From an uncultured Sphingorhabdus sp. (GTDB lineage Bacteria; Pseudomonadota; Alphaproteobacteria; Sphingomonadales; Sphingomonadaceae): 24,000 bases of DNA. The position numbers and the translations under genes were made by a program. Of the stretch, positions 11,522 to 14,547 are shown in pieces (the first letter of the stretch is position 1; the number at the start of each line of letters is the position of its first letter). The notes below the pieces were generated by a model. That model ran no database searches, was not told the origin of the DNA, and was given only the letters and a program-made list of their open reading frames with translations. The stretch spans positions 264,578 to 288,577 of the forward strand of contig CANLOL010000001.1 of NCBI GenBank assembly GCA_947492905.1. Reading direction: 5' to 3'.

Positions 11522-12667
11522 ATGACAAGCGATAATCCCTCTTTGCGCCCATGGCGCGATATTGAACGCCGCCAGAGCCGCCAAATCATGGTCGGCGATG
11601 TGGCAGTTGGCGGCAATGCCCCCATTAGCGTACAAACCATGACCAACACGCCAACCTCTGATATAAAGGGGACAGTTGATCAAATCCGCCGTTGCGAAGA
11701 AGCAGGCGTGGATATTATTCGCGTTTCATGCCCCGATGAGGACAGCACAGCGGCTCTGAAACAAATTGTTCGGGCTAGCCGTGTGCCGATTGTGGCGGAT
11801 ATTCATTTCCACTATAAACGCGGGATAGAGGCCGCCGAAGCTGGCGCTGCATGCTTGCGTATTAACCCAGGTAATATTGGCAGCGAAAAACGTGTCAAAG
11901 AGGTGGTGGACGCCGCAAAATCAAACGGCTGCGCCATTCGTATTGGCGTCAATGCGGGCAGCCTCGAAAAAGGTTTGCTCGAAAAATATGGCGAGCCTTG
12001 CCCAGAAGCCTTGGTGGAAAGTGCATTAGACCATATTAAATTGCTGCAAGATCAAGATTTTCACGAATATAAAGTCGCGGTAAAAGCCAGCGATCTATTC
12101 TTGGCTGTTGCTGCCTATTCGCAGCTTGCCGATGTGGTCGATTGTCCGCTGCATCTAGGAATTACCGAAGCTGGCGGATTAATCGGCGGCACGGTGAAAA
12201 GTGCGATTGGTATGGGCAATCTGCTGTGGAGCGGGATTGGCGATACGATACGGGTCTCGCTCTCGGCTGAACCCGAAGAAGAAGTGCGCGTCGGTTATGA
12301 AATGCTCAAAGCATTGGGCCTGCGCACACGCGGCGTACGTGTGGTAAGCTGCCCTAGCTGTGCGCGCCAAGGCTTTGATGTAATCCGCACCGTTCAGACG
12401 CTCGAAGAGAGATTGCAACATATCAACACACCGCTTTCGCTCTCTGTGCTTGGCTGCGTGGTCAATGGGCCGGGTGAGGCGCGCGAAACCGATATTGGTT
12501 TAACCGGCGGCGGCAATGGCAAGCATATGATATTCCTATCGGGCGTTACCGACCATCATGTCCAAGACGATGATATGATTGAGCATATTGTCGGTCTCGT
12601 GGAGAAGAAAGCGGCTGAAATAGAGGCTGGCACCAGCGAGAGCATGGATGTCAAACATGGAATTTAA
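11522..12667 (+). CDS. ispG: 4-hydroxy-3-methylbut-2-en-1-yl diphosphate synthase (flavodoxin)
   Basis: [31 protein letters not shown], and the C-terminal 4Fe-4S cysteines SCPSCAR ... GCVVNGPGE. Confidence 0.95.
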
Positions 12668-12715
12668 ATTAATCTAAACAATTATTTACCTTTATAAGTA
12701 TAAGTTTGAATTATA

Positions 12716-12762
12716 AGATATTTCTAAAATATCTTGACAAGCGTGACGTTTCACACTAGTTT
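12716..12762 (+). promoter_or_regulatory. Orphan sigma70-type promoter with an upstream palindrome
   Basis: Perfect -35 TTGACA (12734-12739), 17-nt spacer, then -10 TAGTTT (12757-12762, with T1, A2 and T6 conserved). The palindrome AGATATTT-cta-AAATATCT (12716-12734) abuts the -35. GTGA-N4-TCAC (12743-12754) lies in the spacer. No ORF follows. Confidence 0.5.
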
Positions 12763-12769
12763 AAATATC

Positions 12770-12914
12770 GAACTTTAGAGGTGAGAACAGCCTCCTCACA
12801 CACCTTGTTGATTACAATCTATAAGGTATAGTAGCTGAAAAGCGAAGAGATCCAAGGGTGGGCAACTTGGCTAAAGCATTAAAACCTCTCGGCAATCCCG
12901 GGAGGTTTTATTTT
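12770..12914 (+). ncRNA. Candidate small RNA (about 145 nt), family unknown
   Basis: It is bounded by the promoter above and an intrinsic terminator. All six frames are full of stops. Internal hairpins are GTGAG-N9-CTCAC (12781-12799) and CCAAG-N9-CTTGG (12852-12870). There is an exposed CCUCCUC anti-Shine-Dalgarno-like tract (12791-12797). The start coordinate is inferred from the -10 position. Confidence 0.45.
12881..12914. terminator. Bidirectional rho-independent terminator
   Basis: AAAA-CCTCTCGG-caatc-CCGGGAGG-TTTTATTTT: an 8-bp GC-rich stem with one G-U pair and a 5-nt loop. The A-tract on one side and T-tract on the other let it work on both strands. The stop codon of the minus-strand ORF (12908-12910) lies inside the T-tract. 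Confidence 0.75.
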
Positions 12915-13309
12915 GTGATAAGCCGCTTATAATGACCTTTAGCTTTACGGTTTTCCACTTTCTTGTCAGATATAGGGTAGAATGATACAATATTGTAACA
13001 ACCATTTATATCAATAGAAATACGCACAGCCACTAGCAACCAATCAGGAAATCCCGCTGGTTTGCTTACTAACTCTACCTTATCTGGGTTTTTATAGTCA
13101 TCTCTTACATATAATGGATTGTTCACCACAGAAGCAATATGCGGTAGACAATGAGCATAATCTCTCGGGTGGTTTCTTTGTGCATGATTTTGTGCTGAAA
13201 TTGACATAGTCACATCGCCACTATCCAATTCTAAAGCAAGAGCATCGTTAATACCATTAATATTAAGAGGTCCAAAGTTTAAAGGTATTTTTTTCTTAGA
13301 TTGGTTCAT
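12908..13309 (-). CDS. Solitary BECR-fold (phage-Barnase-EndoU-ColicinE5/D-RelE-like, PBECR-type) putative RNase/toxin
   Basis: 133 aa. The pattern VTMSISAQNHAQRNHPRDYAHCLPHIASVVNNPLYVRDDYKNPDKVELVSK ... LLVAVRISIDINGCYNIVSFYPIS..K...R.AKG matches my recollection of the small PBECR proteins (x-H-I-x-x-R-H-P-x-D-Y ... I-I-x-N-P-D-Y-[IV] ... K-N ... [LV]-x-V-[AV]-[VI]). The assignment is by eye only. Confidence 0.55.
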   Translation of the reverse strand: MNQSKKKIPLNFGPLNINGINDALALELDSGDVTMSISAQNHAQRNHPRDYAHCLPHIASVVNNPLYVRDDYKNPDKVELVSKPAGFPDWLLVAVRISIDINGCYNIVSFYPISDKKVENRKAKGHYKRLITK

Positions 13310-13380
13310 TAAATTATTGTGACATATTAATGGTTAAAACAATAGAATATAGTATAATTTTACTATATTGGTTTGCTTAT
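13310..13380. promoter_or_regulatory. AT-rich divergent promoter region between the PBECR-like gene and the HExxH lipoprotein gene
   Basis: A perfect TATAAT at 13353-13358 (+ strand) lies inside the long version of the downstream ORF, which favours the ATG at 13381 as the real start. TAATAT on the minus strand sits about 15 nt upstream of the PBECR-like ATG. The -35 elements are weak. Confidence 0.35.
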
Positions 13381-14547
13381 ATGACCCGATATACACATTA
13401 CATCATCATTACAATATTAACCTTAATAATCTCGTCTTGCCAGACTAATGAATGGCAATCAAATGGCGGGCTCGATAAAACTGACACAGCATTATTCGCG
13501 TCTTGGCAAAAATTAGACGCGGCATTTAATTGCTGCTCCAATGAGGTTTGGACCAGCGATTATCGCCCCCAAGACGAACCTATATTATTTGTGCGCACCA
13601 ATGGTGGTAAATTTAGCCATGCCTATTTAATAAACCATCCTGCTCCAAATACTGTTGCGGGCGCGGTGCGCATTAACGCATCTGCTTTATCCAATTTTCC
13701 GCCTATATATCGGCTTAACCAATTATCGCCTCAGCAATTAGAATTTATTGGCAATTTTGATTTTGAATTTCCAATCGGTGGCATCGATGTTTTTGCGGTG
13801 ACGTATCAAAAGCGCAGCGCATCGAAGGTGCAGCAAGCATTAGAGAATGAGAATATCTATCAAGAACCAGGGGAAAGCAGTTTTGCCGATGTTGCATCCG
13901 ATGATTGGATATTGTTTTTGGCGCATGAAATATTTCACCGCCGACAGTTCAAATTATGGGCGCAATTTGAAAATGATCAAGATTTAGACCGATATAATTT
14001 CTCTCAAGAAAATATCGCGATGATATTATTAGAGCAAGAGATATTGACCAATGGATTGCGCCGCCGCACCAAAGAAGCAGCGCAAACAGCATTGGTCGAA
14101 TATGCAGCGGTCAGGCAATATCGGCAAGCGCGTTTTGGGTTGCAGGTCAAGACATTGGACAGCGCCCAAGAAATTTATGAAGGAACCAGCCGTTATATTG
14201 AACATCGCTTTGGCGAAATATTGGGCAATTCAGAATTTAATATGAATAATTTTGCTGAGATTATTGAAAATGATCAAGAGCTATTTCGCGAGAGCAATGT
14301 GCGCGAACAGATCGGTTTTGGCCGATTTTATGCGAGCGGTGCTGGCGTTGCCGCTCTATTAGATCGTGCTGATATTGAATGGAAAAATACCATCCGATTT
14401 GGCCAAAATTTTAATGATATTATTCGTGATAATTTTGTCCTTCAAGATGAAAGAAATATCATCAGTTCGATCCGAACTCGTTACGATTATAATGCATTAT
14501 TCAATCAAGCAGCAGAGCTATCAGCTTTGGCAAATCAAGAGCTGTAA
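13381..14547 (+). CDS. Putative zinc metallopeptidase lipoprotein (HExxH, MA-clan-like)
   Basis: The ORF track starts at 13330. From ATG 13381 the N-terminus is a textbook lipoprotein signal, MTRYTHYIIITILTLIISSC. It has HExxH (LAHEIFHRRQ) plus a downstream EGTSRYIE that could supply the third zinc ligand, as in Peptidase_MA-like proteins. I recognise no closer family. Confidence 0.55.
   Translation: MTRYTHYIIITILTLIISSCQTNEWQSNGGLDKTDTALFASWQKLDAAFNCCSNEVWTSDYRPQDEPILFVRTNGGKFSHAYLINHPAPNTVAGAVRINASALSNFPPIYRLNQLSPQQLEFIGNFDFEFPIGGIDVFAVTYQKRSASKVQQALENENIYQEPGESSFADVASDDWILFLAHEIFHRRQFKLWAQFENDQDLDRYNFSQENIAMILLEQEILTNGLRRRTKEAAQTALVEYAAVRQYRQARFGLQVKTLDSAQEIYEGTSRYIEHRFGEILGNSEFNMNNFAEIIENDQELFRESNVREQIGFGRFYASGAGVAALLDRADIEWKNTIRFGQNFNDIIRDNFVLQDERNIISSIRTRYDYNALFNQAAELSALANQEL

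Follow-up and report, generated by a model that had tools for sequence, protein, structure and literature searches.

Positions 264,578 to 288,577 of contig CANLOL010000001.1 (GenBank assembly GCA_947492905.1), a stretch of 24,000 nucleotides (nt) from an uncultured Sphingorhabdus sp. that we refer to as the window, contain a compact locus in which a predicted nuclease gene and a structured RNA face each other. The nuclease gene is a stand-alone reading frame on the minus strand (12908..13309) encoding a 133-amino-acid (aa) predicted endoribonuclease of the Barnase-EndoU-ColicinE5/D-RelE (BECR) fold, placed in the PBECR3 family on the basis of a Pfam profile, an alignment of homologues (A1), and an AlphaFold2 model. 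On the plus strand lies a skipping-rope RNA (Rfam RF02924; 12771..12878), recognized by Rfam and by a covariance model of our own (R1) and composed of a closing stem P1 and the elements P2, P3, P3a, and P4. The RNA has its own promoter (12734..12762, plus strand), and an intrinsic terminator probably common to both transcripts (12880..12916) follows it. A previous, sequence-only reading of the window had described the open reading frame (ORF) as a PBECR-like RNase convergent with a candidate small RNA (sRNA). The sRNA proves to be real, although that reading did not recognize it as the published skipping-rope motif.

The four sequence blocks on which the PBECR assignment had been based are all present in the ORF (HAQRNHPRDY at residues 42-51, VVNNPLYV at 61-68, YKNPDKVELV at 72-81, and LLVAVRISI at 91-99), and a Pfam scan bears the assignment out: the protein matches PF18812 (PBECR3) at 35.5 bits (E=1e-8; gathering cut-off, 30 bits), with residues 18-120 covering profile positions 9-115 of 115. 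PBECR2 appears in the same scan as a weak match under its own cut-off, and a PHROGs scan returns one weak family whose function is not known. In a large protein collection we find 35 close relatives, all of them stand-alone and mostly 115-157 aa long, with a few fragments; nearly all PBECR3 homologues carry a precomputed PF18812 assignment. A profile search extends the family to 270 clusters at 50% identity, nearly all solo proteins of similar size.

Among 24 homologues in alignment A1, H42, S114, K117, and R121 are invariant, and in most homologues a Lys or Arg precedes the His. A Lys/Arg in this position, together with a colicin-like BECR layout, has been described for PBECR3 (bioRxiv 10.64898/2026.08.28.747851). 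The AlphaFold2 model of the window protein (pLDDT, 91.8) agrees with that layout; it has four strands and places H42 within helix 37-46 and S114 immediately past the last strand (104-113). His42 and Ser114 are thus candidate catalytic residues as judged from alignment and model. In the PBECR passages of Iyer et al. (PMC5512222), an N-terminal-helix His together with a C-terminal Ser/Thr are the defining active-site pattern of five of the six PBECR families, and since this pattern is invariant as H42 and S114, the PBECR3 enzyme looks active.

A structure search, also suggested by the sequence-only reading, points the same way. Foldseek against predicted viral structures gives 10 matches at E<=1e-3 (TM, 0.53-0.73), comprising minor capsid/MuF-C proteins, PolyVal ADP-ribosyltransferases, large polyvalent proteins, and an N4-type RNA polymerase fragment; the model accordingly resembles domains of viral MuF-C and polyvalent proteins. 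MuF-C, polyvalent, and N4 RNA polymerase contexts are those in which PBECR domains were first defined. The search against solved structures yielded nothing significant, with two CdiA-CT toxin entries at E ~0.6-1, and the profile had no match among PDB sequences. Membership of the window protein in the PBECR family is well supported; its likeness to solved BECR toxins is putative.

The RNA is identified with similar clarity. An Rfam scan of the whole window returns a single match, RF02924, at 43.9 bits (E=1.7e-7; gathering cut-off, 36.7 bits), which is full-length (model positions 1-80), and model R1 scores the same RNA at 104.5 bits. Skipping-rope was reported in 2017 by Weinberg et al., whose main text notes a “compelling association” with a nearby protein, “in either orientation,” states that a Rho-independent terminator follows the RNA and that one particular protein family is associated with it, reports no self-cleavage in the discoverers’ experiments, and proposes a “biochemically challenging task” for the RNA (PMC5737381). 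That main text gives no function and does not name the protein, which is described in the supplementary text (PMC5737381).

Scanning one genome per species for the protein yielded 32 loci, or 33 with the window (L-numbers below denote individual loci of our collections). They come mostly from alphaproteobacteria (Sphingomonas, Methylobacterium, Azospirillum, Maricaulis, Microvirga, and Rhodobacterales), with one from Janthinobacterium. Rfam places skipping-rope above threshold in 21 of the 32, and R1, built from the Rfam matches of these 21 loci, finds the RNA near the gene in all 32 and in the window (E=1e-8 to 1e-25). The RNA lies within 10-65 nt of the stop codon, with the exception of L031 (~1.3 kb). 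Because the RNA stands beside the gene in 33 of 33 loci, chance cannot explain the pairing.

Searching in the opposite direction, with one exact pattern derived from an invariant hairpin of the RNA, we collected 142 viral and metagenomic loci, and a PBECR3 gene adjoins the RNA in 73 of them; as the single pattern is typical of the alphaproteobacterial variant, the fractions in this set are not unbiased. Whichever direction the search took, every linked locus has its RNA past the 3′ end of the gene. Plasmids carry the pair as well. It is convergent on Sinorhizobium americanum plasmid B (RNA, 47.5 bits) and on Azospirillum argentinense p7 (RNA, 30.9 bits, under the Rfam cut-off), and on Bacillus thuringiensis pKBT11 an RNA of 61.5 bits shares the strand of a gene whose product is annotated as a PBECR2 nuclease fold protein. 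With these plasmid pairs, the gene-RNA module spans two phyla.

The sequence-only reading had suggested checking whether homologues always carry a convergent promoter-terminator unit; the RNA is found at every one of the 33 loci, but at 3 of them it is on the gene’s own strand. Convergence holds for the window and 29 further genome loci, the same-strand arrangement being confined in this set to L028-L030; in the RNA-first set, 64 pairs are convergent and 9 same-strand.

Where one partner is damaged, it is the gene. PBECR3 genes that appear broken by truncation or frameshift adjoin an intact RNA in L007, L017, L023, L031, and L032, and at least six internal partial PBECR3 genes stand beside intact RNAs on metagenome contigs, whereas an apparently intact PBECR3 gene lacking the RNA was found in 0 of 28 cases. 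In L031 (3845-5709), the gene ends after residue 83, the intact RNA follows 1305 nt beyond, and an ORF resembling an insertion sequence (IS)-type transposase lies just 5′ of the gene; this module appears to have been disrupted by insertion. Two GC-rich metagenome contigs without nearby tRNA genes (L060:507-617 and L114:954-1064) carry RNAs of 92-100 bits with adequate flanks and no PBECR3 gene nearby, and we take these contigs to be cellular; the RNAs look like orphans outside phage tRNA arrays. In a Maricaulis metagenome-assembled genome (MAG; OZ245800.1), the module is present twice in one chromosome, ~36 kb apart (L010 and L011). Both copies include several kb of flanking small codirectional ORFs; either a large segment could have been duplicated, or a mobile or prophage-like element could be present twice.

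No conserved protein accompanies the pair. All-versus-all comparison of ORFs of >=70 aa and of >=25 aa around the 33 loci revealed no conserved protein partner; apart from PBECR3, the clusters consist only of antisense shadow ORFs from GC-rich genomes and of reading frames obtained by translating the RNA. The gene is therefore free-standing, as the sequence-only reading had proposed, and we reject a hidden protein antitoxin or immunity partner. Flanking genes differ from locus to locus and, by eye, are housekeeping genes, a few transposases, and one ParA/resolvase context.

The signals around the RNA are those of a gene in its own right. The window promoter consists of a -35 box TTGACA (12734-12739), a 17-nt spacer, and a -10 box TAGTTT (12757-12762), from which transcription is predicted to start near 12770, around the first base of the skipping-rope motif. 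A simple promoter scan missed this site because its -10 hexamer fits only 3 of 6 positions. A box of the TTGAC/TTGAA type is present at the equivalent distance 5′ of the RNA in 32 of 32 related loci, those with gene and RNA on the same strand included. On the 3′ side, a terminator scan and the plus-strand fold give a hairpin at 12880-12910 followed by TTTTGT; the full element comprises a 13-bp hairpin with an A-run on its 5′ side and a T-run on its 3′ side. The PBECR3 stop codon (12908-12910) forms the last three bases of the 3′ arm of this hairpin. Folded on the minus strand, the hairpin has -21.8 kcal/mol (z=-3.2), and a moderately U-rich stretch comes next. It probably ends both the skipping-rope RNA and the PBECR3 mRNA; the convergent geometry and common terminator of the sequence-only reading were thus essentially right, with the stop codon in the 3′ arm of the hairpin. 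Every related cellular locus likewise has a comparable GC-rich hairpin and T-run past the RNA. Given the fixed-distance upstream box and the dedicated 3′ terminator, we regard the cellular skipping-rope RNA as an independent transcription unit.

The RNA itself is elaborate. In the window copy, the P2 hairpin has a GUGAG/CUCAC stem and the loop AACAGCCUC, the P4 hairpin has the loop GGUGGGCAA, P3 is a variable hairpin, and P3a is a small one. Across the 21 loci, 18 of 27 predicted pairs show compensatory changes. The P2 and P4 loops covary as well, GCC occurring with GGC or CCC with GGG, and in the copy from B. thuringiensis the two loops have exchanged their G-rich and C-rich sides, a pattern that fits a predicted loop-loop pairing. 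Cellular and phage copies have in common the core GAGGUGAGAAC..CC.CCUCA..CACC - GGUAAAGUAGC - GAAGAGAU and the covarying closing stem, and many unpaired bases of the RNA are invariant. The Rfam consensus layout reads as an 8-bp stem, 2 nt, a hairpin, 1 nt, a hairpin, 4 nt, a hairpin, and 0 nt. In phage copies, the variable middle arm P3 is capped by UUCG or GNRA tetraloops. We also observe a second RNA variant, which has an additional hairpin in the P4 loop terminating in conserved CUGAAAACUGGGACC. It occurs in L020, L024, L025, L028, L030, and many metagenome loci, accompanies P2 loops of the CCC form, and is found with the most divergent clade of PBECR3 proteins.

A second population of skipping-rope RNAs is found in phages, where the nuclease is missing. 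These viral copies are full-length (35-100 bits with R1, 40-59 bits with Rfam), and none of the 22 viral contigs has a PBECR3 gene near the RNA. In addition, tblastn of the nuclease against 50,697 phage records gave no match, and no relative turned up when 2.9 million viral contigs were scanned with a pattern. In 25 loci, the RNA sits inside a tRNA gene array on the strand of the tRNAs, often 2-6 nt from a tRNA end; these include L041 (CcrBL10), L042 (CcrRogue), L036, L037, L045, L047, L048, L050, L077, L080, and L124. Phage copies are usually followed by an unpaired A and, unlike the cellular copies, have no terminators of their own. Gene-linked and tRNA-array loci are almost mutually exclusive.

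In Caulobacter phages CcrRogue and CcrBL10 and in seven further related phage records, the RNA occupies a gap that follows tRNA-Gly and bears no annotation (in CcrRogue, NC_019408.1, at record positions ~48702-48798). When all of the unique CcrRogue sequence was searched in six frames with a hidden Markov model (HMM), no PBECR3-like domain was found (best E=2.2; positive controls, 1e-33 to 1e-58), other PBECR families not being excluded by this search. By blastn, the window RNA found no match among GenBank phages because the sequences are too divergent, and a phage-type copy used as query found the Caulobacter phages.

Several further features were seen around the phage copies. CcrRogue (L179-L183) has annotations for a tRNA splicing ligase (gp257), a tRNA amidotransferase (gp284), a nucleotidyltransferase (gp316), and a PhoH-like protein, a set that would amount to a tRNA/RNA-repair toolkit, in keeping with a role against host toxins that cleave RNA. 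In L043, L046, L086, and L093, the RNA lies within ~0.25 kb 3′ of a conserved ORF of ~110 aa (MLVKVYNNDVGGALRKLKKKMFNEG...) identified by eye as resembling ribosomal protein S21, and it starts directly after that ORF in L043 and L086. About 130 nt past the RNA of L038 (4406-5067) is a two-piece alphaproteobacterial tmRNA gene (Rfam alpha_tmRNA, 118 bits). Finally, ARAGORN calls tRNAs with the anticodon CUA (amber suppressor type, labeled tRNA-Pyl) in the phage arrays, upstream of the RNA in L036 (2647-2720; 5 nt away) and in L037 (3382-3456) and L063 (2199-2273), both ~180 nt away.

Taken as a whole, we favor the explanation that gene and RNA form a type III-like toxin-antitoxin or abortive-infection pair whose structured RNA binds and silences the BECR RNase, and we put its probability at roughly one in two. 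The module consists of a stand-alone, predicted metal-independent PBECR3 endoribonuclease and a dedicated skipping-rope RNA. The RNA would be made from its own strong promoter, end at its own terminator, and fold as a compact pseudoknotted four-way junction that directly binds the RNase and holds it inactive. A drop in RNA supply or a disturbance of the complex, for instance when a phage shuts off host transcription, would free the RNase to cut cellular RNA; analogy with colicin D/E5 and CdiA-CT relatives makes tRNA a plausible target. Phages with only the RNA, cotranscribed in tRNA arrays, would supply a surrogate antidote and so act as antidote mimics.

Three properties argue for such an antidote: the partnership is exclusive, there is no protein immunity factor, and the catalytic site is apparently active. 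The decay of genes beside intact RNAs, with the reverse not seen, speaks for it as well, as does the parallel between RNA-only phage copies and pseudo-ToxI mimicry (PMC3475682). A precedent for a directly binding RNA antitoxin exists in the abiF RNA (bioRxiv 10.1101/2025.04.15.648962). From co-occurrence, asymmetric decay, and the phage orphan copies, we infer that the RNA binds and inhibits the toxin; the toxicity of the protein, the identity of its target, and a role in defense are likewise putative.

A number of observations weigh against this explanation. The modules stand among housekeeping genes (ispG in the window) and in no recognizable defense islands, and NCBIfam and PADLOC scans of the window nuclease gave no matches. 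The classical type III layout, in which the toxin itself processes a tandem-repeat RNA placed upstream of its gene, is not matched, since the window RNA is single-copy and lies downstream. Some of the broken PBECR3 genes come from MAGs and could be assembly errors, and strict co-occurrence is equally expected if the RNA is an obligatory cofactor. Moreover, the location of the phage copies alone is no proof of an anti-defense role, because the phage noncoding RNAs GOLLD and ROOL also lie near tRNAs, which the main text of Weinberg et al. considers possibly just cotranscription (PMC5737381).

A more pointed account of how the RNA might act, which we consider tentative, is that skipping-rope is a tRNA-shaped decoy, a noncleavable mimic of the substrate that plugs a colicin D-like tRNase, PBECR3. 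It would then be a new class of RNA antitoxin. Alphaproteobacterial phages, for example the phiCbK-like Caulobacter phages, would have captured the RNA into their tRNA arrays, and host tRNA-processing enzymes would release it there as an anti-defense RNA. A tRNA cloverleaf is built of a 7-bp stem, 2 nt, the D arm, 1 nt, the anticodon arm, 4-5 nt, the T arm, and 0 nt, with pairing between the D and T loops. The connectivity of the Rfam consensus appears to be the same; its first and last hairpin loops are predicted to pair as the D and T loops do, and the arm in the anticodon position is variable and capped by UUCG or GNRA in phages, whose copies start 2-6 nt past a tRNA and usually have an unpaired A after them. 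However, no tRNA detector calls the skipping-rope RNA: ARAGORN reports no tRNA in the window, and Rfam at a permissive threshold finds no tRNA-clan match in 12740-12930 and calls the phage copies skipping-rope, not tRNA. The lengths of stems and loops are not tRNA-like either, and other phage RNAs likewise lie near tRNAs.

The RNA could instead be part of a ribonucleoprotein enzyme, in which, instead of inhibiting the PBECR3 RNase, it activates or directs it as an obligatory cofactor, a specificity subunit, or a sensor. We consider this unlikely, while acknowledging what speaks for it: gene and RNA strictly co-occur and are coinherited, the RNA has a riboswitch-like complexity with many invariant unpaired bases, its variants track protein clades (the CCC/GGG loops occur with the most divergent proteins, those of L020, L024, L025, and L028-L030), and the “biochemically challenging task” put forward in the main text of Weinberg et al. 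(PMC5737381) would suit such a role. Yet protein-free phage RNAs are hard to explain if the RNA does nothing but activate a host nuclease, and under this model one would not look for genes that decay beside intact RNAs and never the reverse. In addition, no guide segment is obvious, as P3 in phages is capped by plain stable tetraloops.

Less probable again is an inversion of roles, in which the RNA is the functional product, e.g., a tRNA-shaped molecule acting in translation or RNA metabolism, and PBECR3 is its dedicated processor that trims the terminator hairpin, a task that in phages would fall to the enzymes processing the flanking tRNAs; we hold both halves of this proposal together to be improbable. 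It would account for the terminators, since cellular copies always have the 3′ hairpin and phage copies, 2-6 nt from tRNAs, do without, and for orphan RNAs in both cells and phages. It also sits well with translation-related phage contexts (tRNA arrays, a tmRNA, an S21-like protein). Nevertheless, a patchy and sometimes plasmid-borne distribution better suits an accessory selfish or defense module than a translation factor, and a nuclease dedicated to a single transcript would be an unusual arrangement. Characterized BECR-fold enzymes are, furthermore, overwhelmingly toxins (PBECR passages of PMC5512222; bioRxiv 10.64898/2026.08.28.747851).

The mechanism suggested by the sequence-only reading, in contrast, is not supported. 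It had likened the geometry to txpA/RatA; in such a model, the 3′ ends of the convergent transcripts would pair and the toxin mRNA would be degraded or silenced. In systems of the txpA/RatA type, the toxin is a small hydrophobic peptide and the antitoxin acts by obligatory base-pairing with the toxin mRNA, so that the antisense geometry is conserved. The geometry is suggestive, as both genes converge on one hairpin in the window and at most loci, and at L016, L021, and L008 a distance of 10-20 nt means that the RNA terminator must overlap the last codons of the gene. However, the RNA is on the gene’s strand in 3 of 33 genome loci, in 9 of 73 metagenome loci, and on pKBT11. The overlap between gene and RNA is limited to the terminator hairpin, which is not conserved in sequence, and the spacing between stop codon and RNA ranges from 10 to 62 nt; conservation resides in the structured body with its covarying stems and predicted loop-loop pairing, a multi-helix fold that is no plain complement of the mRNA. 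Nor is there locus-specific complementarity between the RNA and the gene’s translation start, the mean duplex energy being -41.2 kcal/mol within the same locus and -40.3 kcal/mol for mismatched loci (p=0.45) in a crude test that leaves duplex length unlimited. Phage copies exist without any complementary gene and would have to act in trans, and the toxin candidate, a soluble alpha/beta enzyme domain of 133 aa, is no small membrane peptide. Given the same-strand loci, the terminator-only overlap, the conserved fold, and the lack of start-region complementarity, an antisense mechanism is unsupported and, in our judgment, very improbable; that the two share a terminator seems to follow from tight packing in convergent orientation.

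The further alternative of the sequence-only reading, two unrelated genes that merely have a bidirectional terminator in common, has convergent genes’ frequent sharing of terminators in its favor but is already refuted by the conserved pairing, since the RNA adjoins the gene in 33 of 33 species’ loci with wholly different flanks, in 73 of 142 RNA-first loci, and on plasmids of two phyla; the gene is functionally tied to the RNA.

Parts of this picture are already published, namely the skipping-rope motif and its unexplained protein association (PMC5737381). The window RNA agrees with that motif in scoring above the gathering threshold, in its 3′ intrinsic terminator, and in its association with a nearby protein; what differs from the published description is that the partner is named here as PBECR3, that in every locus examined the RNA lies past the 3′ end of the gene, and that gene-free copies occur in phage tRNA arrays. 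In the literature searched, we found neither a naming of PBECR3 as partner, nor an antidote interpretation, nor phage tRNA-array copies, although the supplement of the 2017 report may hold some of these. A full-text literature search likewise returned no later functional work on skipping-rope and no paper on an RNA partner of a PBECR protein.

With the PBECR domains of polyvalent proteins (Iyer et al. 2017, PMC5512222), the window protein has in common the profile match, the His plus Ser/Thr pattern, and structural similarity. Most of the PBECR domains described in the relevant passages of that paper belong to phage proteins that are injected, some are solo versions from phages, and those passages mention no RNA partner. 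The subfamily seen here, in contrast, occurs as a solo gene in cells or on plasmids, was not detected in phages, and is tied to a dedicated RNA.

Type III systems (ToxIN, CptIN, TenpIN) likewise join an endoribonuclease to an RNA partner with no protein antitoxin (PMC3475682, PMC5086642), and RNA-only phage copies would have their counterpart in pseudo-ToxI antitoxin mimicry (PMC3475682). The toxin fold is different: type III toxins have the ToxN/AbiQ-type fold, whereas the toxin candidate of the window is a BECR protein with no ToxN match in the Pfam and PADLOC scans. So is the architecture, the type III antitoxin being an upstream array of tandem repeats, processed into units of 34-36 nt and in one operon with the toxin gene (PMC3475682, PMC5086642), and the skipping-rope RNA one structured unit of ~110 nt that has a promoter of its own and lies downstream, usually in convergent orientation. 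We found no tandem repeats in 12500-13500 and on that ground reject a ToxI-like repeat antitoxin.

Another analogue is the abiF RNA motif, which neutralizes the Abi_2 toxin via direct binding (RCd22 of Clostridioides difficile; bioRxiv 10.1101/2025.04.15.648962). There too, a conserved structured RNA motif is tied to one protein family, although protein family and RNA fold are others, and the skipping-rope/PBECR3 pair is known from sequence alone. Phage tRNAs that counter tRNA-cleaving host defenses (PMC10264068, PMC11555353, PMC11464382) resemble the phage copies in being RNAs inside phage tRNA arrays. Skipping-rope, however, is not a tRNA and would counter the nuclease as a decoy or inhibitor, not as a replacement tRNA.

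Around the module, the window contains ispG, an unannotated 405-aa protein, a thioredoxin-like protein, an EamA transporter, and an acyltransferase, and a composition profile shows the module to be slightly AT-richer than its surroundings. The AT-rich promoter region noted by the sequence-only reading before the nuclease gene is found at 13310..13380 (~30% GC), a divergent region between the PBECR3 start codon and the neighboring gene. The minus-strand sequence before the PBECR3 ATG has no clear Shine-Dalgarno sequence, and a promoter scan gives one promoter-like site there, on the plus strand (13319-13348). The divergent neighbor (13330-14547, plus strand) is the 405-aa ORF; it has no Pfam match, contains an HEIFH (HExxH) motif and a lipoprotein-like N terminus (…LIISSC), probably starts at the ATG at 13381, and may, by these motifs, be an uncharacterized lipoprotein metallopeptidase.

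Skipping-rope is a highly conserved and structurally complex bacterial RNA whose function has been open since 2017, and a BECR-fold RNase as its partner makes that function experimentally approachable. The absence of a protein immunity factor and the existence of phages carrying the RNA alone sharpen the hypothesis of an RNA antidote. If it is true, RNA antitoxins would extend to a new toxin fold and to a new architecture, in which one folded unit transcribed from its own promoter takes the place of repeats. A compact RNA able to switch off an RNase would also be a useful tool. Solo cellular PBECR genes would gain a physiological role, and tRNA arrays of phages would prove to hide an RNA-based form of counter-defense.

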